Assembly (NCBI GenBank): GCA_045580735.1
Contig: JAZNOJ010000053.1
Coordinates: 9,362 to 73,361 of the forward strand
Source: Candidatus Egerieisoma sp.
GTDB taxonomy: Bacteria; Bacillota; Clostridia; UBA1212; UBA1255
Direction of reading: 5' to 3'
DNA length: 64,000 nucleotides
In this document: in pieces, positions 41,327 through 62,422 of the stretch
Layout: each line of letters opens with the position of its first letter
Numbering within the stretch: the first letter of the stretch is position 1
Made by a program: the position numbers and the translations under genes
The notes under the pieces: generated by a model
Seen by the model: the letters and a program-made list of their open reading frames with translations, nothing else
What the model was told of the DNA's origin: nothing
Database searches by the model: none

Positions 41327-41340
41327 AGGAAGTTGATTTT

Positions 41341-42429: not shown

Positions 42430-42462
42430 TGTCAAATTAAAAAATATAAAGGAGTTAATATC

Positions 42463-43506
42463 ATGATTGAAAATTCTAAAAACATTGTTCTCAACGAAGA
42501 AGCACTCAACGAGCTACTTACTACACCTTCTGATGGTCTTATCGAGGATATCGCAAAAATTAAAGGTGATATAATGGTTCTTGGTGCAGGTGGAAAGATG
42601 GGTCCTGACATTTGTATTCTAGCAAAAAAAGCAATTGACAAAGCTGGAATAAATAAAAATGTATATGCTGTATCAAGATTTTCAGAAAAAGCAGCCGCAC
42701 AAAGATTAGAAGCCTTTGGTATAAAAGTTATTTCTGCTGATTTATCTGAGGATGGTGCTTTAGAAAAATTACCGGATTGTGAAAATATCATTTTTATGGC
42801 TGGTAAAAAGTTTGGCACAAATGGAAGTGAATATCTTACATGGGGAATGAATTCTTGGCTTCCATGTATGACCGCCAGAAGATTTTCGAAATCAAATTTC
42901 GTTGTTTTCTCAAGCGGAAATATTTATCCAAAAGTACCAACTTGTAGTGGAGGTGCTACTGAAGAAACTCCAACATACCCTATAGGAGAATACTGTATGT
43001 CCTGCTTGGCTAGAGAAAGAGCCTTTGAATATGCTGCAAAAACGCGTGGTGCTAAAGTATGTATAATGCGTTTAAATTATGCAATAGATTTACGTTATGG
43101 TGTTCTTCATGATATTTCTCAAACAATATTGTCCGGAAAGCCTGTTGATTTAGCTGCAATGCCAAGCTTTAATTGCATATGGCAAAAGGATGCGAATGAA
43201 GCAGCTATAAGATTATTGCTACATACAAGTGAAGAAATGAATATAGTTAATGTAACAGGACCTGAAACTGCCGGTGTTAAACAAACAGCAATATTACTCG
43301 CAAAAGCACTGGGAAAGGAAGTTACATTTATTGGAGAGGAAGCCTCAACAGCATATCTAAACAATGCCGGAAAAATGTTTAAAATGTTTGGGTATCCAAC
43401 ATATTCACTCGATAAATTAATTGAAATGCAAGCTGCATGGCTTTTAAACGGTGGAAGAAGCCTCGGTAAGCCTACACATTTTGAAGAAAGGAATGGAAAT
43501 TATTAA
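42463..43506 (+). CDS. NAD-dependent epimerase/dehydratase-like (extended SDR / NmrA-like) protein
   Basis: MVLGAGGKMGPDI Rossmann motif near the N-terminus, 347 aa. The exact family is uncertain. Confidence 0.55.
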   Translation: MIENSKNIVLNEEALNELLTTPSDGLIEDIAKIKGDIMVLGAGGKMGPDICILAKKAIDKAGINKNVYAVSRFSEKAAAQRLEAFGIKVISADLSEDGALEKLPDCENIIFMAGKKFGTNGSEYLTWGMNSWLPCMTARRFSKSNFVVFSSGNIYPKVPTCSGGATEETPTYPIGEYCMSCLARERAFEYAAKTRGAKVCIMRLNYAIDLRYGVLHDISQTILSGKPVDLAAMPSFNCIWQKDANEAAIRLLLHTSEEMNIVNVTGPETAGVKQTAILLAKALGKEVTFIGEEASTAYLNNAGKMFKMFGYPTYSLDKLIEMQAAWLLNGGRSLGKPTHFEERNGNY

Positions 43507-44561
43507 TGGACAGACATATAGAAGCTTTAAAAATATTACACAAAGGAACAGTCATTCCTGCTATTCCACTAGCGCTAACCAACGAACGAAAATTCGATGA
43601 AGAAAGCCAACGTAGAATGGTGCGATATTATTTAGCCGCAGGCTCAGGTGGTATAGCAGCTGCAGTTCATAGCACACAATTTGAAATTAGAGAGCCTCAA
43701 CATAACTTATTTGAGCCTGTATTAAGGGCTGTAGCAGAGGAAGTAGACAAATTTGAGGCTAAAAACGGAAAAACAATAATTCGTATCTCCGGTGTATGTG
43801 GCCTTAAAGAGCAAGCTACAAAGGAAGCAGAGCTAGCAAAAAAATATGGCTACGATGCTGTTCTTTTAAGTCCAGGTGGCTTAAATCATTTATCTGAAGA
43901 AGAATTATTAGAAAGAACAGAAGCTGTTTCAAAGGTTCTGCCGGTAATTGGTTTTTATCTTCAAGAAGCTGTAGGAGGCAGAAAGCTGAGTAAAAATTAC
44001 TGGAAAGAGCTTGCAAATATTGAAAATGTTGTTGCAATAAAATGTGCATGCTTCGATAGATATTGTACACAAGACCTTGTTAAAGGCGTGATGGAGTCAA
44101 ATCGTTGTGAAGCTGTTGCACTTTACACAGGAAACGACGATCATATTGTTACTGATTTATTAACCCCTTTCACATTAGAATCAAATACAGGTGTAAAGCA
44201 AAAACACTTTGTAGGCGGTCTTTTAGGACAATGGTCAGTATGGACAAAAAAAGCTGTTGAAATATTTGAAAAATGTGTGAAAGCAAGAGAATCAGGTTGT
44301 ATTCCAACTGAGCTTTTAAATATTGGTGAGCATTTAACAGAGTGTAATGGTGCTGTATTTGATGTAGCAAATAAGTTTGCAGGCTGTATTCCCGGTCTTC
44401 ATTATGTACTCATGAAGCAAGGCTTGATGAAAGGAACATGGTGTCTGAATCCTAATGAAATCCTCTCCCCTTGTCAAGCTGAGGAAATTGACAGAGTAGC
44501 CAAGGCTTATCCAGAAATAATTGATGATGATTTTGTAAAAGATTTTCTTAAAAATGACTAA
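43506..44561 (+). CDS. DapA-like class I aldolase / dihydrodipicolinate-synthase-family protein (putative)
   Basis: 351 aa. The N-terminal GTVIPAIPLALT...GSGGIAAAVHSTQFE resembles the DapA family GxTGE region. Its ATG overlaps the previous stop (TAATG), indicating translational coupling. Confidence 0.4.
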   Translation: MDRHIEALKILHKGTVIPAIPLALTNERKFDEESQRRMVRYYLAAGSGGIAAAVHSTQFEIREPQHNLFEPVLRAVAEEVDKFEAKNGKTIIRISGVCGLKEQATKEAELAKKYGYDAVLLSPGGLNHLSEEELLERTEAVSKVLPVIGFYLQEAVGGRKLSKNYWKELANIENVVAIKCACFDRYCTQDLVKGVMESNRCEAVALYTGNDDHIVTDLLTPFTLESNTGVKQKHFVGGLLGQWSVWTKKAVEIFEKCVKARESGCIPTELLNIGEHLTECNGAVFDVANKFAGCIPGLHYVLMKQGLMKGTWCLNPNEILSPCQAEEIDRVAKAYPEIIDDDFVKDFLKND

Positions 44562-44637: not shown

Positions 44638-47600
44638 TCAATCAAAAAAACCAAGTGTTATCAATGCCTTCATCGCTCTATCAATATACCCTTCATCGAT
44701 AAGCGGCCAGTTAAAGCCCAGACGATACAAAGCCTTAATGGTAAACTCATTTTCTTTTCCAATCATTCTGTATGACTTATCATGAGTATTATAAGAAATT
44801 AAAGCAGATATTGACATATTACGTTCTTCATCAGATAAGCCTTCTGTAAAGAATTTATTAAATTCCTCTTCATCGACGATTTTAATATTTATTGAGTTTT
44901 TCCTTAACACCTCTAATACATTAAACATATGAACAGTATGACAGCTATAGGTATGAAATACTGTGTATTTATCAGGAGCTCCGGCAAGAGTAATAATTGC
45001 CTTTGCAGTATAATCCACAGGTGAAAACTCTGCCCTCATATCCAGACTACCAATCGGAAATGCCCCAATTGCGTAATATGCCTTTATTCTATTCATAAAT
45101 CCATTTGTATTAAAGTTTGCCTGGAACTCACCATCCGCCTCTCTGCTCATAAGGTTTCCGACTCTCATAATCTTGCCACGTAAGCCTTTTTCTTTTATTG
45201 CACTTAGAACAGCCTTTTCTGCTTTCCATTTTGTATAAGCATATTTATTATCAATCATTTGCCCAAAGTCCAGCATATTCTCTCTTAGCTCAATTGTATT
45301 TGGTAAGCTATCATTTACATTTGCACCAGCTATACTCGTTGTTGATACCTGTACAAGCTTTTTATTAAGAACAGCACATATTTCTATAAGATTTTCAACT
45401 CCATTAAAATTAATTTTTTCCAGAATATCATCCGATGTAAAATGCTTAACACATGCTGCACAATTAATAATTGTATCAAATTCAATTTGCTTTAAAGAAT
45501 CAAGAAGCTTTTTATCTGTAATATCTCCATTAACAACAATTATTTTATCTCCGAAAAGCTCTTCCATTGGATCATCGAAATAATACATAAGAAGTGTCTT
45601 TAATCGTGCCTCTGCTGATGTTTTCTTTCCTGGTCTTACCAGACAATAAATTTTTGGTGTACCCGCCTCTATTAATTGTTTAACAACGTGTATTCCTAAA
45701 AATCCGGTTGAACCAGCAACCAAAACGTTTCCTATATCAGAATATGTGATATTTACCGCTTCAGTAGGAATATTATATTTCAATACATCATAAAGATTCT
45801 CTTCGTTTAATGAAAAAGCTTCAAGCATGTTATCAGCTTTTTTAGAAGCATTGTTGCTTTGAGTATCTATTTTTATCTCTCTTGAAGTACCACGCTGCTT
45901 CATAACAAACTCTGATAGCTTTTGAGGTGTTGAATAATCAAATACATCCTTATAAACAACAGGAATATTTTCAACCATACATTTCATTGCAATCTTTGAT
46001 GCTAATAGTGAAGTGCCACCTAATAAAAAGAAATCATCATCTGCAAATACCTCATCTATACCTAGCACCTGTGCGAACATATCACAAAATCTCTTTTCAG
46101 TATCATTTGTCGGCTTTACTCCCGCATTGCTTCGTGTTGAAATAACAGGCTCCGGAAGAGCTTTTTTATTAACTTTTCCATTTTGAGTCATTGGCATCTT
46201 ATCTAGCTTCATGAATACTGACGGAACCATATATTCTGTCAATGATTTTTTCAAATATGAAACAAGTTCATTTTCGTCAACATTTTCCTTGGCTGTATAA
46301 TATCCACATAAGAATTGACCCTGCGCCTCACTTCCTTTTAACAAAACAACACTTTGATTAATAGCTTCAAAAGAATTCATCGCACCTTCAATCTCATCAA
46401 GCTCAACTCTTAAACCTCTTAGCTTAACCTGATTATCCATTCTTCCCATAAATAATATTTTACCTTCAAAATTATAACGTGCCATATCTCCGCTTTTGTA
46501 GGCAGGCATATCATTATATTTGAAAAACTTTTCATTTGTAAGCTCGTCATTTCCAACGTATCCACGTCCTACACCAGCCCCGGTAATTGTTAGCTCACCG
46601 GGTGCATAAGGTGGTAAGCAATTGCCGTTTTTATCTAGAATATAAACACCGGCATTTGCAAGAGGTCCGCCAATAGTAATATAATCACTCGTTATATGGT
46701 CAATTGTAGCTGATACTGTAATTTCAGTTGGTCCGTAGCTATTGCTTATATCAGCCATAACACCTGCAGCTCGAAGCTTTTTATATAAAGAGGCTGGAAA
46801 TGCTTCAGCACCAATTACCATATATTTTATCTTACATAAAGCTTCATGTGTTTGTGGTATATCAAGCATATTGTTCATATATGATGGTGTGCATTTGATA
46901 ACATCAACATTATTTCTAATAAGCATATTTGCAAGTAAAATAGGATTGTGAATTTCTTCCTCAGTCGCCATAGCTACTGTAGCTCCATTATATAAAGGAG
47001 CCATTTCCTCAACAATTGAAACATCAAAGGTTAACGCTGCTAATGCAAGAACAACTCTTTCACTATTTGCAAATTCCTTATAGCCGTAAGCTTTTGGATT
47101 ATTTTTATTATTCATTACAAAGTTTGTAAGATTTCTATGCTCAATCATTACTCCCTTAGGCTTACCGGTAGAACCTGATGTAAAAATACAATAAGCAAGA
47201 TTATTAGGATTAATTAGTACGTTTGGATTACTAATTTCATCTGACTTAAGTATATCTTCTATACATAAAGCTCTATACTGCGAAAACAACTCAGTTCTGT
47301 TTTTTAATACATCATTTGTAGTAATAATGATTTTAGCATTTGCCCCGGAAAGAATATAACCTATTCTTTCGTCAGGATATTCAGGAGAAATAGGAACAAA
47401 TGCACCGCCGGATTTTAATACTCCTTGCCGTGCAGCATATGCATTAATACATCTTGGCATAATAACTGCTATCTTATTTTCAGGTTGAACGCCCTCGGAA
47501 ATCAATGTATTTGCAACTCTGTTTGCATTTTCATTTAATTCTCTATAAGTAATACTTTGATTTTCACATATAACTGCAAGCTTTTCAGGATTATTCTCAA

Positions 47601-50600
47601 CTGAACGCTCAAAAAGCTTATTTGCAGTAATAGGTTCATTTGTAGTTTCTGTATCATTAAAGCTCTTAATCATTGATGCTGCATTATCTGAAAGTATAGA
47701 TACTTCCTTAAGCTTCTTTTTGTTTACAAATTCTGTCATTGCCTTTTCAAGAGCTTCCATAAAGCCTTCAATATATTTTCTACTAAATTTACCAGCGTTA
47801 TATTCACAAACCCAACAAATTTTTCCATTTTTCAAAAATACATTTACGTTTAATGGTGCTTTTGCACTGTCTAAGCTTAGCTCTATCATTTTAGCAGGTT
47901 CACTGCACAAGGAATCAAAAACGAACTCACTTCCTTGATAAGCAAACATTACATCAGCCCTTGCACCAAGCTCCCTGCTTATTTCTGCAAATGAATATAT
48001 ATCATATGTCATGCTATCTAAGAGCTGTTTTCCAACTTGTGCAACATATTCATTTACCAGCTTTTGAGAATCTTCTATATTAATTACTACAGGTAATGTT
48101 TTTACAAGCATTGAGATAGTATTTGTTAATCTTGAATCACTTCTGCCATTATAAATACTTGCAAAAGATAATATTTCATTACCATTATATTTTGATAGTA
48201 CAAAGCCAAATACGGCAGTAAAAAACGCATTCATACCAAGCTTATTTACATCACAATAATATTTAACATCCTCTGCAGTAAGAGCACTACTAATATATTC
48301 AAATGATTCTGCCTTCTGTAATTCATTCTTTTTTACATCACCAAGCGGCAAGCTTTCTTTTTCTGCATCAGCTAAAAGCGACTTATAATAATTTTTAGCC
48401 TTTTCAAAGAAACTACTCTTACGAAGTGTACTTTCATTTAATACAACCTCATAACCACTATATTTTTCTATTTCCAAAGTTTCTTCCTTATATGCTTTTG
48501 ATATATCATTTAAGAAAATAAGCATAGATGAACCATCACTAATAATATGATGCATTTCTATTAAAATATATAATTTATCGGCATCTATAATTTTAACTCT
48601 AAATAAGCTGCCGCCAATTAGCTTAAATGGTTTTACAAGATTATCTTTTATCTCCTCTAACGATGAAGCCTTTATAATTTCAATAGAAGCTTCATCAAAT
48701 GAATAATCTCCGTCCATTCTTCTCTGTCTTAAATCACCCTCCTCGTTCAAAAACATACGAGTTTTTATATATGGATGTGCATTAACTGCTGCGACAACTG
48801 CTGACTTAAGCTTATCTATATCCAAATTTCTGCTTATTTCAAGTAAAACCGGAATATTATAAACTGTAGCATCAGGCTTAGAAACTGACTCGACATAAAT
48901 ACCTTCCTGTGTTTTAGAAATTGCGTAGTCATTTAATATTTCAAACTTTTCTTCCTCAACACTATTAGCAAAAAATTCTTCCAGCTTAAGAATTGTATCA
49001 TTTTCCTTCAAATCAGAAGTTTTAACATTAAAATTAAATTCCTCGGATAATGCTACATTAAGTCTAACTGCTCCAATAGAAGTAAGGCCAGCTTCATAGA
49101 TATTTGTTTTTATTCCAAACTCCTTATGACCAACAACCTCTGAAATACAATCAAAAAGTCTCTGCTGAATATCATTTTGCGGAGGTATTGCATCTACAGC
49201 TTTTCTTTTCGGAACTGGCAACGCTCTTTTATTAACCTTTTGATTTTGATTATATGGAATAGCAGAAATTTGCATAGTTACAGCAGGTACCATATAAGGT
49301 GGCTTCTCTTCTAAAATAAAGCTGTTTAGAGCATCAATATCAATTTCCTCATCAGAAACAATATATGCAGCAATATATTTTCCACCTGAAGGTTCTTCAA
49401 AGGCAGCTACTGTCGCATCCCTTATACCTTCAAAACGTCGTATAACCTCTTCTACCTCAGTAAGCTCAATTCTAAAGCCTCTTATTTTAACCTGTGCATC
49501 TCTACGACCAATAAATTGAATTTTTCCATCACCCATATATCTTACTATATCGCCTGTATGGTAAACTCTGCTATAATCTTCATCATCAGAAAAAGGATTA
49601 TTAGTAAATGCTGCTGCTGTTTGTTCAGGTCTATTTAAGTACCCTCTTGAAACCTGAGGTCCGGAAATCCATAGCTCACCAACAGCACCTACCGGAAGTA
49701 GCTTGCCATTAGAATCGGTCACGTAAAGCTTAATATTATCTGTTGCTTTTCCGATAGGAACATCAATATATTTTTTATCAACATGAAATGCTGTCATAAA
49801 TACAGTACACTCTGTAGGACCATACGCGTTATACAAAGCATATTTTTCAGGAGGATTTACTGGTACAAGCTTTTCACCACCCACAAGCAAATACTTTAAT
49901 TTTTCAGGTGCCTGCATTAATGCAAATTGCCTTCCAACCTGAGTTGTAATAAATGCGTTCGTTACATTCTCTTTTGTATATAATTCTTGTAAAGCTTTTA
50001 AATCTAATCTTAATGCTTCAGAAACTATTAATACAGTTGCACCTGCAGTTAAAGTTGGATATAAATCCATCATGCAAGCATCAAAGCCATAGCTGGCATA
50101 TGCAGCAGCAACGGAATTTTGTGTAAGCTCAAATTTTGTTCTAAAATAATCACAAAAAGCAATTAAATTTCTATGCTCAAGCATTACGCCCTTAGGAAGC
50201 CCTGTAGAACCTGATGTATAAAGCATAATAAATAAATCTTCAGGTTTTGGTAATCTAAGCTCTACATCTAAGTCCTTCATATTTTCAATTTCAGAAAGCA
50301 TTATTCTTCTGCCTTTAAATTCATCGTTAATGATAGAATCATATTCAGGTACTGTTATTAATATTTTTGCATTTGAATCTTGTACCATTAAATTCAGTCT
50401 TTCCGGAGGATAAGTCGGATCTAATGGTAAATATGCACAGCATGCCTTTAAAATACCCATCGAGCATAGAACTATATATTCACTTCTAGGTATAAGAACT
50501 GCAATTACATCCTCTTTACCTACTCCCATAATATTCAAATTCTTTGCTAATTTATCAGATATTAAATCTACATCTTTATATGTTAATCTCTTTTCTTCAT

Positions 50601-53600
50601 ATATTACTGCAATGCTTTCAGGTGATTTTTTAACATTATTTTTAAACAATTCAACTATTGTTGCATTTTTATCATATGCTTTATGTGTAATATTAAACTT
50701 ATCTATTTCCTTTCTGAGCGCAGCATCAATTAATTCAATATCATTTAATTTTTCTAATGCCAACATTCCCTTTACGATTGATATAAACATACTAGCAAGA
50801 CTGTTCATTATTTCTTTACTGTAAAGCTCAGAGCGATAATTTATAATAACCTCATACGAATCCTTACCCTTTAAAACCATTACATTTATATCAAATTGCA
50901 CATCCCCTGTTTCGGGATTAACAATAGGGCAATATTCATTTTCTATCATAGCACCATTAAGTAAATCAGCTTGATAAACAAAAGCAATATCTGCTCTTAT
51001 AGAATATTGTGATGCAAGCTCTCCAAAGGATATGCAGTCATGCTTCATTGTTTCAAAGAAATAATTCTGCGTGTTTTTTAAATATTCCTTTACACTCATG
51101 CTTTCATCAAATTCAAAAAACAAAGGCAATGTTTTTACAAACATACCTACTGAATTTTCCAATCTAGAATCATGTCTTCCATTATTTACTGTACAGAATA
51201 TAGAATCCCTTGCACCATTAAATTTAGCAAGAGCATAAGCAAAAGCACCAAGAAACAGTGTATTTTCTGTAATACCATTATTTCTGACAAAATGTATAAC
51301 CTCTCGAATTTTAACATCCTCATTTAAAGAAACACTTAGCTTTCCAGCACCCTTATCAGTCTTTAATACAATATCGGGAACAGGTCTGGAATCAGCATCT
51401 ACTGCGCTAAGCTTATTTTCAAAATACTTCTGTGCTTCCTTATACTCCTTAGTATCCTTTAACACTTCCTCATACCTTGATATATCAAAAATTGTCAATT
51501 CTTCTGTCTTGATTTCTTTTCCATTATACACATCTGCAATTTGATTCATTAATACTTTTACTGAGCTTCCATCAAAAACAATGTGATGTATATCAAAAAT
51601 AAAATATATTTTTTTATCACATTTTAAAATTTCCGCACGCCAAAGAGGACCATCTTTTAAATTAAATGGTTTTATAAATTCGTTTAGATATTCTTCAAAA
51701 TTACTAATTTCTTTAATTTCGATGTTCGCATTAACATTTGATAAAACCATCTGTGGTGTGTTATCAACAGTAATTCCTAAAACCTTATGGTTATTAAAAA
51801 CATAATTTATAGCATTTGCAAGCTTATTAACATCTACATTATTTGGCAAAATGCAATACATAGGAATATTATACATTTTCGATTCAGGCTCATTTATACA
51901 TTCTAAATATACACCCAACTGTGATTCGGTAAGAGGATATACATCTAAAAGCTCATCCTCATGCTCTATTAAAGCTTTAGAGCTATCTGCTTCAATTAAT
52001 TCTGATATTTTTTCGATAGTTCTTCCCATCAAAATGTGACTTGGTAAAAGTCCTTCAATATTAGCTTCTGATATAAGTGCAAGCACCTTTATTGAATCAC
52101 CGCCAAGACTTATAAAATCATCTTTTATGCCAATTTTTCCGCATCCTAATACTTTCTCAACACTTTTACAAAGCTTAATTTGAATATCATTTTCAGGAGC
52201 AACATATGCCTCCTTGTAATCATCTATTTTAGGTGCTTTTAATGCATTTCTATCAAGCTTTCCGTTTACATTTTTAGGCATTTCATCAAGCTTTTTAAAA
52301 AATCTAGGTATCATATAATCCGGTATAGAATCTTTAAGTTTTGCATGAATAACACTTTGAGATACATTATTATTCGATGTATAAAAAGCTGCAAGATATG
52401 TCTGTCCCATATTGTCATTAAATGCCTTAACAACTGAATTTGTGATTCCCTCTATACTATTTAGCAGATTTTCAATTTCAAGTGTTTCTACTCTTTGCCC
52501 ATTTATTTTTACCATCCAATCCTTACGATTAGAATAAACAAGATTTCCGTTATCATCAAAATAACCCATATCTCCTGTATGAACAAGTACACTTCCATCC
52601 TCTTGCTTTATAACCTTCCTTGCTGTCTCCTCTGAAAGCTTATAATAACACTTAAGGAAATTACCTTGAATACATATTTCTCCAATTTCTCCATTTTTAA
52701 CAGCATTGTTTTCATCATCTAATATATGAATTTTTACGTTATTTACTGCTTTTCCAATAGGTGTATTATCATATTTCTTATCGACCTTAAAATATGTTAC
52801 CGTTGCAATTGTTTCACTACTACCATAAAGGTTATATAAATCAAAATCCTCAAAATAAACACCGCTTAATCTTTCACTTCCCGTAAATACTCTTACAAGC
52901 TTAGCTGCTCCATTAAACATTCTAAGAAGCTGAGGACTAATAAACGAGGCAGTTATACCATTTTCATTAAAATATTTTTCCATTTCTCGTACATTTTTTC
53001 GTACATAATCACTTAAAATATGAATAGTACCTCCGCAATAGAGTGTAACTAAATATTCTAATACGAATGCTATGAAGGACATTGGCGCTGTAGCACCATA
53101 GATTATATTTTCTACATTATCAAATAAAAACTTTTGCCTTTGAACAGAAAAAGCCAAAGCAGCTATAGAATGTAATATTCCCTTTGGTTTACCTGTTGAG
53201 CCAGATGTATAAATAAGAAACGCATTATCCTCATCATCTAATATAATTGGCTCTATAGATTCATATGAATCTATATCATAAAAAAAATCCTCTCTTATGA
53301 TATATTTAGCATTACATTCTCCAACAATGTAATCTATTCTATCCTTTGGATATTCTTTAATAAGAGAAACAACACAGCAGCCTGCCTTTAATATGCCTAG
53401 ATAAGCCGCAATATATTCTGCTTTTCTATCTAGTAGTATTGCAACAACATCTCCGGGTATACATCCAAGCGAGATTAGCTTTGACGAAATTTTCGAGCTT
53501 AAGCTGTCAAGCTCCTCATATGTTGTATGCCTTTTAGCTTCATTATCTACAATAGCTGTTTTAGATGCATTATTTATAAAAATATCCCTCATTATTTCAA

Positions 53601-53610
53601 TATAATTCAT
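44638..53610 (-). CDS. Trimodular non-ribosomal peptide synthetase, A-T-C-A-T-C-A-T-R, with a terminal thioester reductase
   Basis: 2990 aa. A3/A10 motifs: A1 YTSGSTGKPKG / NGKLDR; A2 YTSGSTGLPKG / NQKVNKRAL; A3 FTSGSTGKPKG / NGKVNKKAL. T serines sit in LGGDSI (aa 506), GLTSIG (aa 1511) and GGTSLL (aa 2534). C domains carry HHIVFDGSS (aa ~675) and HHIISDGSS (aa ~1687). The C-terminal R domain has VLVAGSTGFLGIHVV (aa 2631-2645) and YAYTKWK (aa ~2790). There is no TE or E domain. The RBS GAGGGG lies upstream of the start. Confidence 0.9.
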   Translation of the reverse strand: MNYIEIMRDIFINNASKTAIVDNEAKRHTTYEELDSLSSKISSKLISLGCIPGDVVAILLDRKAEYIAAYLGILKAGCCVVSLIKEYPKDRIDYIVGECNAKYIIREDFFYDIDSYESIEPIILDDEDNAFLIYTSGSTGKPKGILHSIAALAFSVQRQKFLFDNVENIIYGATAPMSFIAFVLEYLVTLYCGGTIHILSDYVRKNVREMEKYFNENGITASFISPQLLRMFNGAAKLVRVFTGSERLSGVYFEDFDLYNLYGSSETIATVTYFKVDKKYDNTPIGKAVNNVKIHILDDENNAVKNGEIGEICIQGNFLKCYYKLSEETARKVIKQEDGSVLVHTGDMGYFDDNGNLVYSNRKDWMVKINGQRVETLEIENLLNSIEGITNSVVKAFNDNMGQTYLAAFYTSNNNVSQSVIHAKLKDSIPDYMIPRFFKKLDEMPKNVNGKLDRNALKAPKIDDYKEAYVAPENDIQIKLCKSVEKVLGCGKIGIKDDFISLGGDSIKVLALISEANIEGLLPSHILMGRTIEKISELIEADSSKALIEHEDELLDVYPLTESQLGVYLECINEPESKMYNIPMYCILPNNVDVNKLANAINYVFNNHKVLGITVDNTPQMVLSNVNANIEIKEISNFEEYLNEFIKPFNLKDGPLWRAEILKCDKKIYFIFDIHHIVFDGSSVKVLMNQIADVYNGKEIKTEELTIFDISRYEEVLKDTKEYKEAQKYFENKLSAVDADSRPVPDIVLKTDKGAGKLSVSLNEDVKIREVIHFVRNNGITENTLFLGAFAYALAKFNGARDSIFCTVNNGRHDSRLENSVGMFVKTLPLFFEFDESMSVKEYLKNTQNYFFETMKHDCISFGELASQYSIRADIAFVYQADLLNGAMIENEYCPIVNPETGDVQFDINVMVLKGKDSYEVIINYRSELYSKEIMNSLASMFISIVKGMLALEKLNDIELIDAALRKEIDKFNITHKAYDKNATIVELFKNNVKKSPESIAVIYEEKRLTYKDVDLISDKLAKNLNIMGVGKEDVIAVLIPRSEYIVLCSMGILKACCAYLPLDPTYPPERLNLMVQDSNAKILITVPEYDSIINDEFKGRRIMLSEIENMKDLDVELRLPKPEDLFIMLYTSGSTGLPKGVMLEHRNLIAFCDYFRTKFELTQNSVAAAYASYGFDACMMDLYPTLTAGATVLIVSEALRLDLKALQELYTKENVTNAFITTQVGRQFALMQAPEKLKYLLVGGEKLVPVNPPEKYALYNAYGPTECTVFMTAFHVDKKYIDVPIGKATDNIKLYVTDSNGKLLPVGAVGELWISGPQVSRGYLNRPEQTAAAFTNNPFSDDEDYSRVYHTGDIVRYMGDGKIQFIGRRDAQVKIRGFRIELTEVEEVIRRFEGIRDATVAAFEEPSGGKYIAAYIVSDEEIDIDALNSFILEEKPPYMVPAVTMQISAIPYNQNQKVNKRALPVPKRKAVDAIPPQNDIQQRLFDCISEVVGHKEFGIKTNIYEAGLTSIGAVRLNVALSEEFNFNVKTSDLKENDTILKLEEFFANSVEEEKFEILNDYAISKTQEGIYVESVSKPDATVYNIPVLLEISRNLDIDKLKSAVVAAVNAHPYIKTRMFLNEEGDLRQRRMDGDYSFDEASIEIIKASSLEEIKDNLVKPFKLIGGSLFRVKIIDADKLYILIEMHHIISDGSSMLIFLNDISKAYKEETLEIEKYSGYEVVLNESTLRKSSFFEKAKNYYKSLLADAEKESLPLGDVKKNELQKAESFEYISSALTAEDVKYYCDVNKLGMNAFFTAVFGFVLSKYNGNEILSFASIYNGRSDSRLTNTISMLVKTLPVVINIEDSQKLVNEYVAQVGKQLLDSMTYDIYSFAEISRELGARADVMFAYQGSEFVFDSLCSEPAKMIELSLDSAKAPLNVNVFLKNGKICWVCEYNAGKFSRKYIEGFMEALEKAMTEFVNKKKLKEVSILSDNAASMIKSFNDTETTNEPITANKLFERSVENNPEKLAVICENQSITYRELNENANRVANTLISEGVQPENKIAVIMPRCINAYAARQGVLKSGGAFVPISPEYPDERIGYILSGANAKIIITTNDVLKNRTELFSQYRALCIEDILKSDEISNPNVLINPNNLAYCIFTSGSTGKPKGVMIEHRNLTNFVMNNKNNPKAYGYKEFANSERVVLALAALTFDVSIVEEMAPLYNGATVAMATEEEIHNPILLANMLIRNNVDVIKCTPSYMNNMLDIPQTHEALCKIKYMVIGAEAFPASLYKKLRAAGVMADISNSYGPTEITVSATIDHITSDYITIGGPLANAGVYILDKNGNCLPPYAPGELTITGAGVGRGYVGNDELTNEKFFKYNDMPAYKSGDMARYNFEGKILFMGRMDNQVKLRGLRVELDEIEGAMNSFEAINQSVVLLKGSEAQGQFLCGYYTAKENVDENELVSYLKKSLTEYMVPSVFMKLDKMPMTQNGKVNKKALPEPVISTRSNAGVKPTNDTEKRFCDMFAQVLGIDEVFADDDFFLLGGTSLLASKIAMKCMVENIPVVYKDVFDYSTPQKLSEFVMKQRGTSREIKIDTQSNNASKKADNMLEAFSLNEENLYDVLKYNIPTEAVNITYSDIGNVLVAGSTGFLGIHVVKQLIEAGTPKIYCLVRPGKKTSAEARLKTLLMYYFDDPMEELFGDKIIVVNGDITDKKLLDSLKQIEFDTIINCAACVKHFTSDDILEKINFNGVENLIEICAVLNKKLVQVSTTSIAGANVNDSLPNTIELRENMLDFGQMIDNKYAYTKWKAEKAVLSAIKEKGLRGKIMRVGNLMSREADGEFQANFNTNGFMNRIKAYYAIGAFPIGSLDMRAEFSPVDYTAKAIITLAGAPDKYTVFHTYSCHTVHMFNVLEVLRKNSINIKIVDEEEFNKFFTEGLSDEERNMSISALISYNTHDKSYRMIGKENEFTIKALYRLGFNWPLIDEGYIDRAMKALITLGFFD

Positions 53611-53820
53611 ATTTACCCCTCGATTCTTTAATATGATTAATCCATATATTAAAATTATACAATACGTACGCCTAAAAATAATATTCTCATAATACAGTAA
53701 AAAAAATTTTTTTTCAACAAAAATAATAAAGCTTCAAATAGCGTATTCTCGATGGTAAATTACATTTCAAATATGTTAAAATTTTCATAGAAAATAAAGC
53801 TTAAAATACTAAAATTTAAA

Positions 53821-53849
53821 TTGACAAAATACCCTAAAACTCGTATAAT
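53821..53849 (+). promoter_or_regulatory. Consensus sigma-A promoter of the pyr operon
   Basis: TTGACA (53821-53826) - 17 nt - TATAAT (53844-53849), followed by the RBS AAGGAGGA and the ATG at 53885. Confidence 0.7.
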
Positions 53850-53884
53850 GAAAAATCGAAAATAAAACAAGGAGGAACCCGAAA

Positions 53885-55075
53885 ATGGAAACTAATCGAA
53901 GACAATTTAAGGTCTACGAAGATGGTAATTTTATTACCAAAGAGCTTTTCATAACAGACAATAAACAATTAAGCAACAGCGAATTGTTTCCATCTTATAT
54001 TTCGGGAGCTTTATTCCCTTTTTCCTCAGATGAATTAGTTATTCTACCCGGTTTTGTTGATGTACATGTACATCTAAGAGAGCCGGGTTTTTCATATAAG
54101 GAAACTATCGAAAGTGGCACCTTAGCAGCAGCAGCCGGAGGCTTTACTGCAGTTTGCAGTATGCCTAATTTAAAACCGGCACCCGATAGTCTTGAGAATC
54201 TAATGGTTCAAATGGATATAATTAAAAGTGACGCTAAAATACATGTATATCCATATGGCTGTATAACAAAAGGTTCTAAGGGAGAGGCTTTATCTGATAT
54301 GGAAGAGCTTGCAGAACATGTAATAGCATTTACAGACGATGGTAAAGGCGTTCAATCAGACGAAATGATGGAAAAAGCAATGCTCAAAGCCAAAAGCTTA
54401 AATAAAATGATTGTTGCACATTGTGAAGTAGAAAGCTGTGCCCCTTCTCCGGAAAGCGAATATCTTCAAGTCGAAAGAGATCTTAAGCTTGTTGCAAAAA
54501 CAGGCTGTAAATACCATCTTTGTCATGCCTCAACAAAAGAAAGCATAGACCTGATTCGACAAGCAAAAAAGGCAGGCTTAAATGTATCAGTTGAAACTGC
54601 CCCACATTATTTATTATTTACAGAAGATGAAATCTTAGATAGTGGAGATTTTAAAATGAATCCACCAATAAGAGGTCAAAAAGATAAAGAAGCTTTAATC
54701 GAGGGAATTTGTGATGGGACTATAGACATGATTGCAACAGATCATGCCCCACATTCAGCAGAAGAAAAGAACAAGGGCTTTAAAGGAAGTCTAAATGGAA
54801 TAGTAGGAATAGAAACATCATTTCCACTCATGTATACAAATTTTGTAAAAAAAGGACTTATATCTTTAGAAAAGCTTATTAAATTAATGAGTGATAATCC
54901 AAGAAAAATATTTAATATTCCGACAAATCAAGGAGATGGAATTTTAGTGGATTTAAATACTCAAATTATTGTAGATAGAAACAAATTTAAATCTATGGGC
55001 AGAAGTATGCCTTATGACGGAATGAAGCTATACGGAAAATGTTTGGGAACATTTATAAACGGGAGGATGATATAA
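53885..55075 (+). CDS. pyrC: Dihydroorotase
   Basis: VDVHVHLREPG metal-binding motif and DHAPH, 396 aa. Confidence 0.9.
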   Translation: METNRRQFKVYEDGNFITKELFITDNKQLSNSELFPSYISGALFPFSSDELVILPGFVDVHVHLREPGFSYKETIESGTLAAAAGGFTAVCSMPNLKPAPDSLENLMVQMDIIKSDAKIHVYPYGCITKGSKGEALSDMEELAEHVIAFTDDGKGVQSDEMMEKAMLKAKSLNKMIVAHCEVESCAPSPESEYLQVERDLKLVAKTGCKYHLCHASTKESIDLIRQAKKAGLNVSVETAPHYLLFTEDEILDSGDFKMNPPIRGQKDKEALIEGICDGTIDMIATDHAPHSAEEKNKGFKGSLNGIVGIETSFPLMYTNFVKKGLISLEKLIKLMSDNPRKIFNIPTNQGDGILVDLNTQIIVDRNKFKSMGRSMPYDGMKLYGKCLGTFINGRMI

Positions 55076-56166
55076 TGAATTACGACAAAAAATTAGTGTT
55101 GAAGGACGGTAGAGAATTTTACGGAAAAGGCTTTGGAGCTGACCGTGATTCTGTATGTGAAATTGTATTTAACACATCAATGGTAGGATATCAAGAAATA
55201 ATTTCAGATCCATCATATGTTGACCAAATGGTAGTAATGACCTATCCAATTATTGGTAATTATGGTGTAACCGACGAAGATTTTGAATCGAAATTAAATG
55301 TACTTGGCGGACTTATAGTTAGAGATTACAATGATATTCCAAGTAACTTCCGATATACTGAAACATTATCACAAATATTAAGCGAAAATAATATACCGGC
55401 AATTAGTGGCTTAGATACAAGAATGCTTACAAGAATTATAAGAGATGAGGGTACACAGCCTGCCCTATTGACATCAGCTGACACTCCGGTTGAAAAAGCG
55501 ATAGAAATTATAAAAAATTTCAAATTAAGCACTGATGCAATACAAAAAGTAAGCTGCAATAAAATTTGGTATTCAAGAACAGCAAATCCTAAATACAATG
55601 TAGTTGCAATAGATTGTGGAATAAAACTAAGTATTATTCGTACATTAAAGGATTACGGCTGTAATGTTACTGTTGTTCCATATAATACTAAAGCAGATGA
55701 AATAATGGCACTTTGCCCAGATGGTATTTTAGTATCAAATGGACCTGGAAATCCCGCTGATGTGCTCTGCGTAATAGAAACAGTAAAAGCCTTAAAAGGT
55801 AAGCTTCCAATATTAGGAATTGGTCTCGGACATCAAATAATAGCACTTTCACAGGGAGCAAAATTATATAGAATGTTATGTCATAAGAGTGGAAGTCACC
55901 CAATTAGAGATATTAATACCGGAAAAATTATATCAGCTTGTCACAATCACAGCTACGCTGTAATTGAAACCTCTCTAGAGGGAACCGGTCTTAAAGTTAC
56001 ACATACAAATGTACTTGACGGTGTAGTAGAAGGAATTGAAGATACATCAAATAAAATGATTGGATGGCAATTCCATCCTGAATGTGCACCAGGACCACAA
56101 GATTCAATAACAATATTTGAAAAATATATTAAAATGCTTGAAATGGAGGTAAAAGCTCATGCCTAA
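55075..56166 (+). CDS. carA: Carbamoyl-phosphate synthase small (glutaminase) subunit
   Basis: The start [22 protein letters not shown] at 55075 overlaps the pyrC stop (TAATG), with the RBS GGGAGG at 55061-55066. The ORF-track start at 55039 is probably an upstream in-frame extension. Glutamine-amidotransferase triad region GICLGHQ. Confidence 0.9.
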
Positions 56167-59100
56167 AAGAACCGATATAAAGAAAATAATGGTAATAGGC
56201 TCAGGTCCAATTATAATCGGACAAGCCGCAGAATTTGACTATGCTGGAACACAAGCATGTCTTGCATTAAAGGAAGAAGGATATGAGGTTATTTTAGCAA
56301 ACTCAAACCCTGCAACAATTATGACAGATACAACGATTGCAGATAAGGTTTATATGGAGCCTCTTACACTTGAATATGTAGCGAAAATTTTAAGATATGA
56401 AAGACCTGATGCAATTATTCCGGGAATAGGCGGTCAAACTGGCTTAAACCTTGCAATGCAGCTTTCTAAAAAAGGCATACTTGACGAATGTCAGGTTGAG
56501 CTTTTAGGAACTAAATTTGACAGTATCGATATGGCTGAAGATAGAGAAAAATTCAAACAGCTCTGTTTGGATTTGGGTGAACCAGTTCTTCCATCAGAAA
56601 TTGCTGAAAGCATGGATGAAGCAATTAAAGCTGCAAATGATATAGGATATCCTGTAGTTCTTCGTCCAGCCTTCACTCTTGGTGGTACAGGCGGCGGTTT
56701 TGCAGATAATGAAGAGGAATTAAGAGAAATTGTAAAAAATGCTCTTTCATTATCCCCTGTTCATCAGGTTCTTGTTGAAAAGAGTATTAAGGGCTACAAG
56801 GAAATTGAATATGAGGTAATACGTGACTCAAATGATACTGCTATAGGTGTATGCAGCATGGAAAACATAGATCCTGTTGGTATTCATACAGGTGACTCAA
56901 TTGTTGTTGCTCCATGTCAAACCTTGACAAACAAAGAGCTTCAAATGCTTCGTGACAGTGCCTTAAAAATCATTCGTGCACTTAAAATTGAAGGTGGCTG
57001 TAATGTTCAATTTGCTTTGGATCCATTCTCATTTAAGTATTACTTAATTGAAGTAAATCCTAGAGTATCTCGTTCGTCTGCATTAGCATCAAAGGCTAGT
57101 GGTTATCCTATTGCAAGGGTAACTGCAAAAATTGCAGTTGGTATGCATCTTGACGAAATTAAGCTTGCTGCAGCACCTGCATGTATTGAGCCTGCACTTG
57201 ATTATATAGTTGCAAAGGTTGCTCGTTTCCCATTTGACAAATTTGCAAATGCTTCAAATAAGCTTTCAACACAAATGAAGGCTACCGGTGAGGTAATGAG
57301 TATCGGCCGTACAATAGAAGAAAGTCTTTTAAAGGCTATTCGTTCATTAGAAATTGGTGCCTTCCATTTATATCTTCCAAAATTTGATGGATTTTCAACT
57401 GACGAGCTTATAAGCTATATCAGCGATGGACATGATGACAGAATGTTTGCTATTGCACAGCTTATAAGAAAAAATGTCGATTTAGGTGTTATTTACAACC
57501 ATACTAAAATCGATATGTTATTCTTATGCAAATTTAAAAATATAATTGACTTTGAGAAAAAGTTAGCTGAAAACGTAAATAGTGCTGAGGTCCTCAAAGA
57601 AGCAAAAAGATTGGGTATTAGTGATAAGTATATTGCAATGCTCTGGAATGTATCTGAGCTTGATATATTTAATTTTAGAAAAGAAAATAACATTTTCCCT
57701 GTATATAAGATGATTGATACTTGTGCAGGCTCTATCGCAAGCGATGTTCCTTATCTTTATTCAACCTATGAGGAAGAAAACGAATCCTTCGCAAGTGATA
57801 ATAAGAAAATTATAGTTTTAGGCTCTGGTCCTATTCGTATTGGCCAAGGCGTTGAATTTGACTACTCTACTGTTCATGCAATTCAAACAATAAAAAAGAG
57901 TGGTTATGAAGCAATTATCATTAATAACAACCCTGAAACTGTATCAACTGACTATACTACAAGTGATAAGCTTTACTTTGAACCACTCACAGTAGAAGAT
58001 GTAATGAATGTTATTACTCTTGAAAAGCCTGATGGAGTTATCGCTTCATTAGGTGGTCAAACAGCTATTAATCTTGCTGATAAATTAGATGCACTCGGTG
58101 TTGAGCTCATTGGTACAGGTGTCGAGGCTATCGAGAGAGCCGAAAATCGCGACAGCTTTGAGAAAATCATGGAGGAGCTCCAAATCCCACAACCTAAAGG
58201 ACGTGCTGTTACAAATATTGATGCTGGTATAGAAGCCGCATCAGAAATCGGCTATCCTGTACTTGTTCGTCCAAGCTATGTACTTGGTGGAAGAGCGATG
58301 CAAATCGTTCAAAACGAAAAGGCTCTTAGAGTATACCTTCGTTCAGCAGTAGAGGTTGATGAAAAACAGCCTGTACTTGTTGATAAATATATCTCTGGTA
58401 AAGAGCTTGAGGTTGATGCAATTTGTGATGGTACTGATGTATTTATTCCTGGTATTATGGAGCATGTTGAAAGAACAGGTATCCACTCCGGTGATAGTAT
58501 CAGTATATATCCTACATTTAGTGTTAGCGAAAAGGTTAAAGATACTATTGTTGATTATACTAAGAGATTGGGACTCGGAATTGGAATTATAGGTCTTTAT
58601 AATATTCAATTTATTGTTGATGAAAAAGAAGATGTTTATGTTATTGAAGTAAACCCTCGTTCATCAAGAACTGTTCCTTTCCTTTCAAAAGCAACAGGCT
58701 ACTCAATGGCAGATATAGCTACAAAATGTATACTCGGTGAAAGCTTAAAAGCCCAGGGAATTGATATTATCAGACCTGCAGAAAAAAATCGTTGGTATGT
58801 TAAGGTTCCTGCCTTTTCTTTCTCTAAATTAAATGATTTAGATGCTTATCTTTCACCTGAAATGAAGTCTACAGGTGAAGCAATAGGCTATGATAAGAAA
58901 ATGACAAGAGCAATTTACAAGGCTTTAATTGCATCTGGTATGAATGTTGTAAATTATGGAACAATTTTGGTAAGCATCGCTGATAAAGATAAAGAAGAAG
59001 CACTTCCTTTGATACGAAGATTCTATCAATTAGGATTTAACATCGAAGCGACTGAAGGTACTGCCAAATTCTTAAGAAGCCATAATATTAAAACAAGAAT

Positions 59101-59341
59101 TAAGAAAAAGCTTAGTGCAGGAAGCAATGAAATTCTAACTTCTATTAGACAAGGACATGTAAACTATGTTATAAGCACAAGAGATGTTGATATTGCTTCT
59201 CAGCAAACTGATGGCTACAAAATCCGTCGTTGCGCTGTTGAAAACAATGTAACAATGTTTACTGCGTTAGATACTGTTAAAGTTCTTTTAGATGTACTTG
59301 AAGAAATAACAATGGGTGTATCTACAATAGATGCAGACTAA
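56159..59341 (+). CDS. carB: Carbamoyl-phosphate synthase large subunit
   Basis: 1060 aa with duplicated ATP-grasp halves ([19 protein letters not shown]... and [19 protein letters not shown]...) and a C-terminal MGS-like domain. Confidence 0.95.
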
Positions 59342-59361
59342 TTTTCTCGAAAGGATAAATA

Positions 59362-60078
59362 ATGTATCAAGAAATTTTTACTGTTAAAGAAAATATATGT
59401 GTAAATCCAAACGTTTTTCGTATGGTAGTTGAAGGTGAAAAGGCTAAAAATCATAAGCCCGGTCAGTTTATCAATATTAAAATCAATGGATTTTATCTCA
59501 GAAGACCTATTTCTGTTTGTGATTCTGACAACGAAACTATAACAATCATGTATAAAATTGTTGGAGACGGCACAGATGCTTTATGCCAAATGCTTCCGGG
59601 TGATGAAATTGATATCCTCACTCACCTAGGAAATGGTTTTGATGTCACAGCAAATACCACTTCACCCCTCTTGATTGGTGGTGGTATTGGTTGTCCTCCC
59701 CTTTATAAGCTTGCTAAAGAGCTTATAAAGGCTGGAAAAAAGCCATCAATTTTACTTGGCTTTAATGATCCCTCTGAGGTAATTCTAGAAAACGATTTTA
59801 AAAAGCTGGGAATTGATGTAACGGTAGTTACAAAAGGCTTTGTTACTGATGCTGACATATTTAAAAATGGAAATTACGACTATATATACACTTGTGGTCC
59901 TATTCCGATGCTTAAAGCTATATATAACGCAAGCAACGTATCTGGCCAATACTCTTTTGAAGAAAGAATGGGTTGCGGTTTTGGTGCTTGCATGGGATGC
60001 TCATGTAAAACAAAATATGGTAACAAAAGAATTTGCAAGGATGGTCCTGTATTAGTAAAGGAGGAAATTATATGGTAA
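59362..60078 (+). CDS. pyrK: Dihydroorotate dehydrogenase electron-transfer subunit
   Basis: 238 aa with an FAD/NAD-binding fold and a C-terminal CGFGACMGCSC 2Fe-2S cluster motif. Confidence 0.85.
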   Translation: MYQEIFTVKENICVNPNVFRMVVEGEKAKNHKPGQFINIKINGFYLRRPISVCDSDNETITIMYKIVGDGTDALCQMLPGDEIDILTHLGNGFDVTANTTSPLLIGGGIGCPPLYKLAKELIKAGKKPSILLGFNDPSEVILENDFKKLGIDVTVVTKGFVTDADIFKNGNYDYIYTCGPIPMLKAIYNASNVSGQYSFEERMGCGFGACMGCSCKTKYGNKRICKDGPVLVKEEIIW

Positions 60079-60989
60079 ACGAAAGACTTAAAGTAGATTT
60101 TTGTGGTCTTACTTTAGATAATCCTATAATTCCTGCCAGTGGCTGTTTTGGCTACGGAAAAGAATTTGCTGATTTGTATGACATTAATATACTTGGCTCA
60201 TTTTCCTTTAAGGGAACTACATCAGAGCCACGTTTCGGAAATCCTACTCCAAGAATTGCTGAAACTCCTTCAGGTATGTTAAATGCTGTCGGACTTCAAA
60301 ATCCCGGAATAGAACATGTAATAGAGCATGAGCTTCCAGAAATGAAAAAATATTTCAGCAAAAAAGTTGTTGCCAATATTAGCGGCTTTGCAGTTGAGGA
60401 ATATGTAAAATGCGCTCAAATGCTTGATAAGGAAGACTGTGTCGGCATATTAGAGGTTAATATCAGCTGTCCAAATGTACACGGTGGCGGAATGAGCTTT
60501 GGCACTAATCCAAAATCTGCCATGGAGGTTACAAGGGCTGTTAAGGCAGTTACATCTAAACCGGTTGTAATAAAGCTAACACCCAACGTAACCGACATTA
60601 AAGAGATGGCTCTTGCATGCGAAGAAGCCGGTGCTGATGGTGTAAGCTTAATTAATACATTATTAGGTATGCGAATTGATTTAGGAAAAAAACGTCCAAT
60701 ATTAGCTAACACATTTGGAGGTATGTCAGGTAGTGCTGTATTCCCTATCGCTTTAAGAATGGTTTATCAGGTAGCTAGTGTAGTTAAAATCCCTGTTATG
60801 GGTATGGGCGGAGTTACTACAGCCGAGGACGTTATAGAAATGATGTTGGCAGGTGCTACAGCAGTTCAAATAGGTGCTGCAAACTTAATTAATCCTTATG
60901 TATGTAAGGAAATAATTGAAAACCTACCTGAGGTTATGGATAAATATAAAATTAATAATTTAAAAGATATTATTGGAGGTGCTCTATAA
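60072..60989 (+). CDS. pyrD: Dihydroorotate dehydrogenase (class 1B) catalytic subunit
   Basis: The likely start MVNERLKVDFCGL... at 60072 overlaps the pyrK stop. NPIIPASGCFGYG and GGV motifs are present. The ORF-track start at 60033 is an upstream extension. Confidence 0.9.
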   Translation: MVNERLKVDFCGLTLDNPIIPASGCFGYGKEFADLYDINILGSFSFKGTTSEPRFGNPTPRIAETPSGMLNAVGLQNPGIEHVIEHELPEMKKYFSKKVVANISGFAVEEYVKCAQMLDKEDCVGILEVNISCPNVHGGGMSFGTNPKSAMEVTRAVKAVTSKPVVIKLTPNVTDIKEMALACEEAGADGVSLINTLLGMRIDLGKKRPILANTFGGMSGSAVFPIALRMVYQVASVVKIPVMGMGGVTTAEDVIEMMLAGATAVQIGAANLINPYVCKEIIENLPEVMDKYKINNLKDIIGGAL

Positions 60990-61723
60990 TGGCAAAAGAT
61001 GTAATTATTGCTTGTGATTTTTCTTCAAGCGAAGAAACTTTATCATTTCTTGATAAAATGGGAGATCGTAAACCATTTGTAAAAATTGGGATGGAGCTTT
61101 TCTATGCCGCAGGACCTGATATGCTTCGTGAAATTGTTGCAAGAGGACACAAGGTTTTTCTTGATTTAAAGCTTCATGATATTCCAAATACAGTAAAAAA
61201 AGCCATGGTTAATCTTGGTGGCCTTGGAGTATATATGTGTAATGTTCACGCTGCTGGTGGTGTTAAAATGATGGCTGCGGCAAAAGAAGGTCTTTTAGCT
61301 GGTGCTGAAAAAGCAGGAAGTGAGCCTCCCCTTTTAATCGCAGTTACACAGCTTACTTCAACTGATGACAACATGCTTCATGATGAGCTATTGATTGGTT
61401 CTTCTATGAATGACACAATTTTAAAATATGCTGAAAATGCTGAAGCAGCAGGACTTGCAGGTGTAGTTTGTTCTCCGCTTGAAAGTGGAATGATTGGAGA
61501 GCATTTTAAAAAGCTTGGTAAAGAATTTATGACTGTTACTCCCGGAATTCGCTTTGCAGGTGGTTCAGTAGATGACCAAAAAAGAATTACAACTCCTCGT
61601 CAAGCCAGAGAAAGAGGCTCAGATTATATTGTTGTTGGAAGACCTATTACAGCGGCTGAGGATCCTGTTGCTGCATATGATAAATGCGTAAATGATTTTT
61701 TAACAGATAATCCTGAAGCTTAA
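60989..61723 (+). CDS. pyrF: Orotidine 5'-phosphate decarboxylase
   Basis: DLKLHDIPNTV motif, 244 aa. The ATG overlaps the pyrD stop. Confidence 0.9.
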   Translation: MAKDVIIACDFSSSEETLSFLDKMGDRKPFVKIGMELFYAAGPDMLREIVARGHKVFLDLKLHDIPNTVKKAMVNLGGLGVYMCNVHAAGGVKMMAAAKEGLLAGAEKAGSEPPLLIAVTQLTSTDDNMLHDELLIGSSMNDTILKYAENAEAAGLAGVVCSPLESGMIGEHFKKLGKEFMTVTPGIRFAGGSVDDQKRITTPRQARERGSDYIVVGRPITAAEDPVAAYDKCVNDFLTDNPEA

Positions 61724-61773
61724 AAGCTATTTTTGTATTAGTTACATTATTAATTTAAAGGAGATACACTATT

Positions 61774-62421: not shown

Positions 62422-62422
62422 T

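Follow-up and report, generated by a model that had tools for sequence, protein, structure and literature searches.

A predicted acid-loading adenylation domain at the start of a reductase-terminated nonribosomal peptide synthetase in Candidatus Egerieisoma

Organization of the synthetase

The 64,000-nucleotide stretch of Candidatus Egerieisoma sp. analyzed here (contig JAZNOJ010000053.1, positions 9,362 to 73,361; the whole stretch is referred to as the window) contains a nonribosomal peptide synthetase (NRPS) gene at 44638–53610 on the minus strand, as defined from the list of open reading frames (ORFs) and their translations. The 2990-aa product has the domain order A1-T1-C1-A2-T2-C2-A3-T3-R, in which A, T, C and R are adenylation, carrier, condensation and thioester reductase domains, and it is matched in Pfam by AMP-binding (three times), Condensation (twice), PP-binding and NAD_binding_4. 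Our subject is the first of these domains, A1. The two elements that hold the alpha-amino group of an amino acid substrate, Asp235 and the Pro of the A5 motif YGPTE, are both replaced in A1 and in the clade of loading domains to which it belongs, and A1 probably supplies an acid that caps the N-terminus of a peptide aldehyde.

All of the NRPS domains lie on the minus strand. The loading domain A1 (52201–53610; aa 1–470) has an NRPS-type fold and the pocket code IALFFGLATK, and it abuts the carrier domain T1 (51976–52188; phosphopantetheine site GGDS(506)I) with no ketoreductase (KR) domain between them; Pfam matched no KR anywhere in the protein. The condensation domain C1 (50656–51948; HHIVFDG), identified by Pfam, is followed by A2 (49171–50655), T2 (48973–49161; GLTS site), C2 (47677–48933; HHIISDG), A3 (46174–47613), T3 (45871–46083; GGTS site) and the terminal reductase R (44641–45726), which has the nucleotide motif GSTGFLG, the sequence YAYTK (YxxxK) and a Pfam NAD_binding_4 match at 2.5e-37. 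The A10 motif of A2 (aa 1456–1461) reads NQKVNK instead of the usual NGK, with the catalytic Lys retained. In a PDB sequence search, both C1 and C2 matched ordinary elongation C domains (those of bacitracin, TycC and LgrA), with no starter-C structure prominent among the matches.

The ORF opens directly with A1, and an intergenic region of 274 bp (53611–53884, no strand) separates the NRPS start from a divergent pyr operon, whose first gene is pyrC-like. There is thus no space for an upstream gene coding for a C domain, a fatty acyl-AMP ligase (FAAL) or an acyl carrier protein, and a first-pass annotation of this DNA was right to describe module 1 as having no upstream C domain.

The residue at position 235 of A1

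The three A domains were aligned to GrsA-PheA with MAFFT and their codes read at the Stachelhaus positions, all ten of which were verified in the PheA reference (D235, A236, W239, T278, I299, A301, A322, I330, C331, K517). Ile180 of A1 (codon ATA, 53071–53073) falls at PheA position 235, with SFIAFVLE lying under SFDASVWE, and an independent HMMER alignment of A1 to LgrA (PDB 6mfz/9be3) likewise pairs 'sfiaf' with 'sfdgs'. No Asp is present within 17 residues on either side of Ile180. The same segments of A2 and A3 read YGFDACMMD (from aa 1174) and LTFDVSIVE (from aa 2193) with the Asp present, and the full codes are DAMFLGAVFK and DVVKVGSVSK, respectively. The contrast drawn in the first-pass annotation between module 1 and modules 2 and 3 is therefore borne out by both alignments; its motif MSFIAFVLE and its nucleotide range (53040–53100) are also correct, and only its residue numbers (178–186) are off by one, as the A4-region motif occupies aa 177–185 (53056–53082).

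The A1 code is wholly uncharged and contains no acidic residue with which an amine at some other place on the substrate could interact. With I, A, L, F, F, G, L, A and T as its lining, the pocket would exclude substrates with charged groups as well as those with an amine at another position.

The domain is otherwise well preserved. The core motifs A3 (TSGSTGxPKG), A7 (TGD), A8 and A10 (NGKLDR, 52249–52266, aa 449–454, with the catalytic Lys451 corresponding to Lys517) are intact, as is the T1 Ser. An AlphaFold2 model of A1 built from 50 clade members has a mean pLDDT (predicted local distance difference test) of 91.5, and Foldseek matches it to PheA (1AMU, E 2e-46) and LgrA (template-modeling score 0.92), as well as to EntF and ApnA; its top structural neighbors are classical NRPS A domains and not FadD/FAAL enzymes. 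Compared with GrsA-PheA and the first A domain of LgrA, A1 has the same fold and the same core motifs A3, A7 and A10, and differs in that Asp235 and Pro325 are both replaced. Its divergence is evident in the NCBIfam model TIGR01733 ('amino acid adenylation domain', cut-off 317.4), where A1 scores 237.7 bits, below threshold, and A2 and A3 score 372.5 and 371.4. Judged by its motifs and modeled fold, A1 appears to be an NRPS-type adenylation domain that is divergent but intact and functional.

A clade of loading domains without Asp235

The loss of Asp235 is not peculiar to the window. None of the best 120 homologues of A1 among 5.8 billion proteins, which share at most 49% identity with it, has Asp at 235, the residue being Val in 64, Ile in 35–36 and Ala in 13. 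A scan of species-representative genomes recovered 80 related loci in Lachnospiraceae, Ruminococcaceae, Anaerovoracaceae and other gut and rumen Clostridia, mostly with the architecture A-T-C-A-T-C-A-T-R, and in some cases A-T-C-A-T-R or four modules. The loading A domains of these NRPSs have Val, Ile, Ala or Ser at position 235 (69/69), and the downstream A domains all have Asp (122/122). A midpoint-rooted neighbor-joining tree of 194 domains has two parts, one made up of exactly the 69 non-Asp domains, the window A1 among them, and the other of the 125 Asp-bearing domains, which include PheA, A2 and A3. Loss of Asp235 is a monophyletic clade trait of the loading domains and not a chance substitution.

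Within the clade the pocket codes vary widely, as in IALFFGLATK, VAQFFGMSAK, AIHVNGASIK and IAKFLGTAAK, and some members have polar residues (Gln, Lys, His, Asn) at 239 or 299. This diversity suggests that the caps differ across the clade. For the window NRPS itself the best identity is 52% among species genomes and 49% among metagenomes, and it reaches 55% when the A3-T-R part is taken; no identical protein is on record, and nothing closer than about 55% was found.

Several other arrangements are found among the relatives. Eleven rumen or gut loci (L051, L052, L055, L058, L059, L061, L062, L064, L067, L069 and L076) encode two-module A-T-C-A-T-R enzymes, in which the first A lacks the Asp (e.g. 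VAQFFGMSAK) and the second has the code DMKNMGTVSK; with a first A of this type, their predicted products are N-capped aldehydes of a single amino acid, as opposed to dipeptides that would form pyrazinones. The non-Asp clade also takes in A-T-thioesterase proteins of about 818 aa from Bacteroidales/Alistipes (P0070–P0108), which have the code VTGHIGMGAK and Met at the A5 Pro position, together with A-T-GNAT and A-T-hexapeptide-transferase fusions. Among the short homologues checked, none showed a link to clostridial OaaA or to the fatty-acid-loading stand-alone A domains of Chang 2021: P0045 is an unrelated stand-alone A adjoining an acyltransferase, and P0064 and P0025 are split N-terminal pieces of the same NRPS family.

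The A5 proline as a second signature

A second signature, absent from the first-pass annotation, lies at position 325, the Pro of the A5 motif. This Pro is present in every Asp-bearing domain (125/125) and in no non-Asp domain (0/69) of the 194 in the tree, so that its loss co-varies perfectly with loss of Asp235. It is also missing from all 120 of the best database homologues of A1, where the residue is M, Q, S, L, C, A or T. The loading clade has its own variants of two motifs, A5 being YGxSE and A8 being NRKDWMVKINGQRVE. In A1 the canonical YGPTE reads YGSSE (52813–52827; aa 262–266) in the context NLYGSSE, with Ser264 at the Pro position.

The position is known to matter for substrate choice. 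StsA, the only crystallized keto-acid A domain, has Ile in place of Asp235 and reads the keto group through the backbone carbonyl between Gly414 and Met415; the substitution M415P abolishes its activity, and the reciprocal LgrA substitutions P483M/A gain keto-acid activity (PMC11253843). Counting residues along the HMMER alignment of A1 to LgrA places P483 at the Pro of YGPTE. In keto-acid A domains, Asp235 is replaced by an aliphatic or hydrophobic residue (PMC10949194, PMC13643306), and A1 has both features, an aliphatic residue at 235 (Ile180) and a non-Pro residue after Gly324 (Ser264). With both StsA-type hallmarks present, A1 is best understood as an A domain that no longer reads the alpha-amino group.

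A1 and the StsA/CesA-type domains thus share an aliphatic 235 (Ile in StsA) and a replaced Pro after Gly324. The StsA/CesA-type modules embed a KR and sit at ester-making elongation positions, whereas A1 is a loading domain followed directly by a T domain, and it is no close sequence relative of theirs.

Relationship to dipeptide aldehyde synthetases

The A3-T3-R part of the window NRPS has relatives at 36–55% identity. One of these, P0164 (39% over A3-T3-R), stands for 1396 sequences, some of them named Ruminococcus bromii. Its contig (L084, 40.7% GC) carries STAS and MatE genes and then an NRPS (L084:7914–15265) organized as C-A-T-C-A-T-R, without a loading A-T. This R. bromii-type enzyme has the A codes DASFLGGVYK and DMKNLGTVSK where the window enzyme has DAMFLGAVFK and DVVKVGSVSK, and it is adjoined by STAS, MatE and LytTR genes that are missing from the window. 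Its starter C is nearest to C1 of loci L050 and L049, both A-T-C-A-T-C-A-T-R, and groups with the C1 set, and its second C groups with the C2 set; the window C1 groups with the first C domains of the relatives and with this N-terminal starter C. The two Ruminococcus sp. loci L049 and L050 are the closest to the R. bromii-type enzyme and carry an extra N-terminal A-T, so the loading didomain has been gained or lost among close relatives.

These relationships connect the window NRPS with enzymes whose products have been described. Ruminopeptin is described as an N-acylated Leu-Glu aldehyde, and the Clostridium NRPS cluster BGC0001686 as yielding N-octanoyl-Met-Phe-H (PMC8518294); the N-acyl tail stabilizes such aldehydes against pyrazinone formation (PMC8210680). 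The R. bromii rup-type NRPS for ruminopeptin (Schneider & Balskus 2018, as described in PMC8518294 and PMC12327764) and the window enzyme have a homologous C-A-T-C-A-T-R core with a terminal reductase, and the expected product class, an N-capped dipeptide aldehyde, is alike. The dipeptide aldehyde and pyrazinone NRPSs of gut commensals (Guo et al. 2017) are also small clostridial NRPSs with reductive release, and some of their products are N-acylated and hence stable aldehydes (PMC8518294, PMC8210680); the window enzyme stands apart in being only 49–55% identical to its nearest sequences. Enzymes of this family have two or three modules, terminate in a thioester reductase and are homologous to the R. 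bromii enzyme, a description that applies to the window NRPS, whose A3-T-R shares 39–55% identity with family members. On this comparison of sequences it would be a family member that provides the cap in cis, through A1-T1, instead of having a starter C to which the cap is delivered in trans.

Among named NRPS models, that of AusA (A-T-C-A-T-R) scores best for the window A2, A3, C1 and C2; AusA makes aureusimine/phevalin and also releases its product, a peptide aldehyde, reductively. Both of the units that AusA loads are amino acids, and the resulting dipeptide aldehyde, its amine free, becomes a pyrazinone; in the window enzyme an extra, putatively acid-loading module would cap the N-terminus.

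The codes of the terminal A domains differ among the relatives. A code nearly identical to that of A3, DVIKIGSVSK, is found in loci L031, L063 and L070, and most relatives have DVLTNGGIGK or DMKN[LM]GTVSK. The latter is also found in the R. bromii-type enzyme, for which the reported product ends in a Glu-aldehyde.

Genomic context

The NRPS gene stands alone between the pyr operon (53885–63785) and convergent sugar and amino-acid metabolism genes (40319–44561), which include GFO/IDH, M20 peptidase, epimerase and DHDPS-like genes. At 19–37 of the related loci the conserved neighbors are a MatE exporter, STAS and SpoIIE-like regulators and a phosphopantetheinyl transferase (PPTase), and there is also a LytTR/kinase pair; no precursor-supply gene is among the conserved neighbors. 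In four loci of Lachnospiraceae (L004:4317–5900, L016:5154–6710, L006 and L042), a generic acyl-CoA-ligase-like gene is found 4–5 kb upstream of the NRPS, and in seven loci (e.g. L070:8555–9916) an F390-synthetase/PaaK-like gene adjoins it. These could be alternative acid-activating enzymes, and neither is present in the window.

The window has a GC content of 33.5%, of the Clostridia type, and includes a SpoIIP gene (6055–7200) and a gene coding for an 818-aa protein (23645–26101, minus strand) with type I dockerin and pentapeptide-repeat matches. Together, SpoIIP and the dockerin point to spore-forming Clostridia that make complexes of the cellulosome or amylosome type. A 1430-aa protein (7193–11485, minus strand) has two BcrAD/BadFG ATPase domains and a DUF2229 ('CoA enzyme activase') domain; proteins of this type activate enzymes resembling 2-hydroxyacyl-CoA dehydratase. 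Any link between this protein and the supply of a 2-hydroxy or 2-oxo starter is pure speculation.

The predicted product

We propose, with a probability of roughly 80%, that A1 loads a hydrophobic non-amino carboxylic acid and that the NRPS makes an N-capped dipeptide aldehyde. In the first step, A1 would adenylate a hydrophobic, uncharged carboxylic acid without an alpha-amino group and load it onto T1; C1 would then couple this acid to the A2 substrate, a hydrophobic amino acid, C2 would append the amino acid activated by A3, and reductive release by R would give an N-capped dipeptide aldehyde, which is a protease-inhibitor scaffold. The A2 code suggests the second unit, as it resembles hydrophobic codes of the Leu/Met type. 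The Lys278 of A3, as in Asp and Asn codes, suggests an acidic P1 side chain, Asp or Glu.

The first-pass annotation had considered the starter not to be an alpha-amino acid, and this gains in strength from the clade: the substitution at 235 is clade-wide, yet not one elongation domain of these enzymes has it, the A5 Pro co-varies with it, A1 falls below the TIGR01733 threshold, and its pocket is uncharged. The N-capped aldehyde that the annotation envisaged likewise agrees with an intact R domain and with homology to the R. bromii-type synthetase of N-acyl dipeptide aldehydes. Its expectation that no pyrazinone would form is sound, and an aldehyde with no free N-terminal amine could not cyclize to one; a three-unit chain would in any case give none, as it is dipeptide aldehydes whose N-terminus is free that turn into pyrazinones.

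Some observations weigh against an acid starter or against a particular class of acid. The keto-acid modules described so far carry, to our knowledge, a KR, which the window NRPS is without. A1 reaches 202 bits with the best fatty-acid ligase model (NF004837), for which the cut-off is 476 and on which it does not surpass A2 and A3, and the PDB match of A1 to PvdL is to an amino-acid A domain of that protein and not to its acyl-ligase module. The best 60 PDB sequence matches of A1 do not include StsA, whether a single sequence or the clade profile is used. The PPTase, MatE exporter and STAS/SpoIIE-type regulator typical of relatives were all looked for in the 64-kb window, and none was found. 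Lastly, Asp235 is not strictly required for amino acid activation, as is shown by McyG, which adenylates L-Phe in vitro although it has Val there (PMC11253843).

Candidate starter acids

If A1 loads an acid as proposed, the candidate that we favor, tentatively and at somewhat less than even odds, is a short, medium or branched alkanoic or fatty acid from the fermentation pool, which would give an N-acyl dipeptide aldehyde resembling ruminopeptin or N-octanoyl-Met-Phe-H. The known products of the family, as described in PMC8518294, are N-acylated dipeptide aldehydes, C1 is homologous to the starter C of an R. bromii-type enzyme that dispenses with the A-T, the A1 pocket is fully hydrophobic, and the related loci have no conserved precursor-supply genes beside them. 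Against this, A1 is not FAAL/FACL-like in sequence models or in fold, and the bulky Phe278, Phe299 and Leu322 of its code leave no obvious tunnel for long chains. The polar residues at 239/299 in some clade members also point to acids that are more specific and functionalized.

A 2-oxo acid such as 2-oxoisocaproate or phenylpyruvate, selected by A1 and carried through with no on-line reduction, is possible but doubtful; the dipeptide aldehyde produced would bear an N-(2-oxoacyl) cap. On a variant of this proposal, A1 would load a 2-hydroxy acid directly. The proposal has in its favor the two StsA hallmarks, namely the Ile at 235 and the replacement of the Pro after Gly324 (PMC11253843, PMC10949194, PMC13643306). 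The rest of the A1 code, ALFFGLAT, resembles that of the Leu-like A2, AMFLGAVF, in keeping with the rule that the code for a keto acid follows the one for the corresponding amino acid (PMC10949194). A-T-thioesterase proteins also occur among the A1 homologues. Enzymes of this architecture that activate aryl-pyruvates have V-A-x-F-x-G codes, like the loading clade. The module and the entire NRPS have no KR, however, retained N-terminal 2-oxoacyl caps are unusual, and the loading clade is not close to StsA in sequence; in addition, the R. bromii-type starter C implies acyl-CoA or acyl-ACP (acyl carrier protein) donors, which are normally plain acyl groups.

An extension of the 2-oxo acid proposal that we regard as improbable, though worth stating, is that the loading clade is a separate lineage of NRPS-type A domains that independently acquired a keto-acid-type site without a ketoreductase, its variable codes reflecting a repertoire of caps drawn from fermentation acids. 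If so, this KR-less keto-acid lineage would give N-(2-oxoacyl) or unusually capped dipeptide aldehydes with two electrophilic warheads.

An aryl or arylalkanoic acid is an unlikely starter. DhbE/EntE and the fatty acyl-AMP ligases do also activate a non-amino carboxylic acid starter, but the aryl-acid A domains have Asn235/Tyr236 and the A5 motif QQVxFMAEGL (PMC11253843), where A1 has Ile180/Ala181 and NLYGSSE. In contrast to DhbE, with its Asn235 and different A5, and to FAAL/FadD, A1 matches the NRPS domains of amino-acid type.

The fold of A1 and its nearest structural neighbors, which are amino-acid A domains, might instead be taken to mean that A1 activates a hydrophobic alpha-amino acid in spite of having no Asp235, as McyG can, so that the product would be a free-amine tripeptide aldehyde. 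We consider this very unlikely, as Asp235 and Pro325 are lost jointly and throughout the clade, the elongation domains of the same proteins keep both, and A1 is below the TIGR01733 cut-off; the native substrates of McyG, moreover, are phenylpropanoid acids and not Phe. Least probable of all is that A1-T1 is a decayed, non-functional remnant, assembly then beginning with module 2 and C1 serving, like its counterpart in the R. bromii-type enzyme, as a starter C that is supplied in trans. That enzyme does work without an A-T, and the usual accessory genes are missing from the window; but the ORF is uninterrupted, the catalytic motifs with Lys451 and the T1 Ser are intact, the AlphaFold2 model is confident, and the clade-specific conserved motifs (NRKDWMVKINGQRVE, YGxSE) indicate purifying selection on the loading domains.

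Implications

The principle at work here is textbook NRPS biochemistry and the enzyme family is known, so that the acid-loading assignment refines an annotation and overturns nothing. It does offer a concrete product prediction, a cap followed by a hydrophobic residue and a probably acidic aldehyde, with the cap installed by a dedicated, putatively acid-loading A domain, as well as a two-residue rule (position 235 and the A5 Pro) by which loading domains of this kind can be spotted in genome mining. The same type of loading domain recurs in dozens of gut and rumen Clostridia. Peptide aldehydes of gut commensals inhibit both host and bacterial proteases, and it is the N-terminal cap that decides whether such an aldehyde survives or collapses to an inactive pyrazinone.

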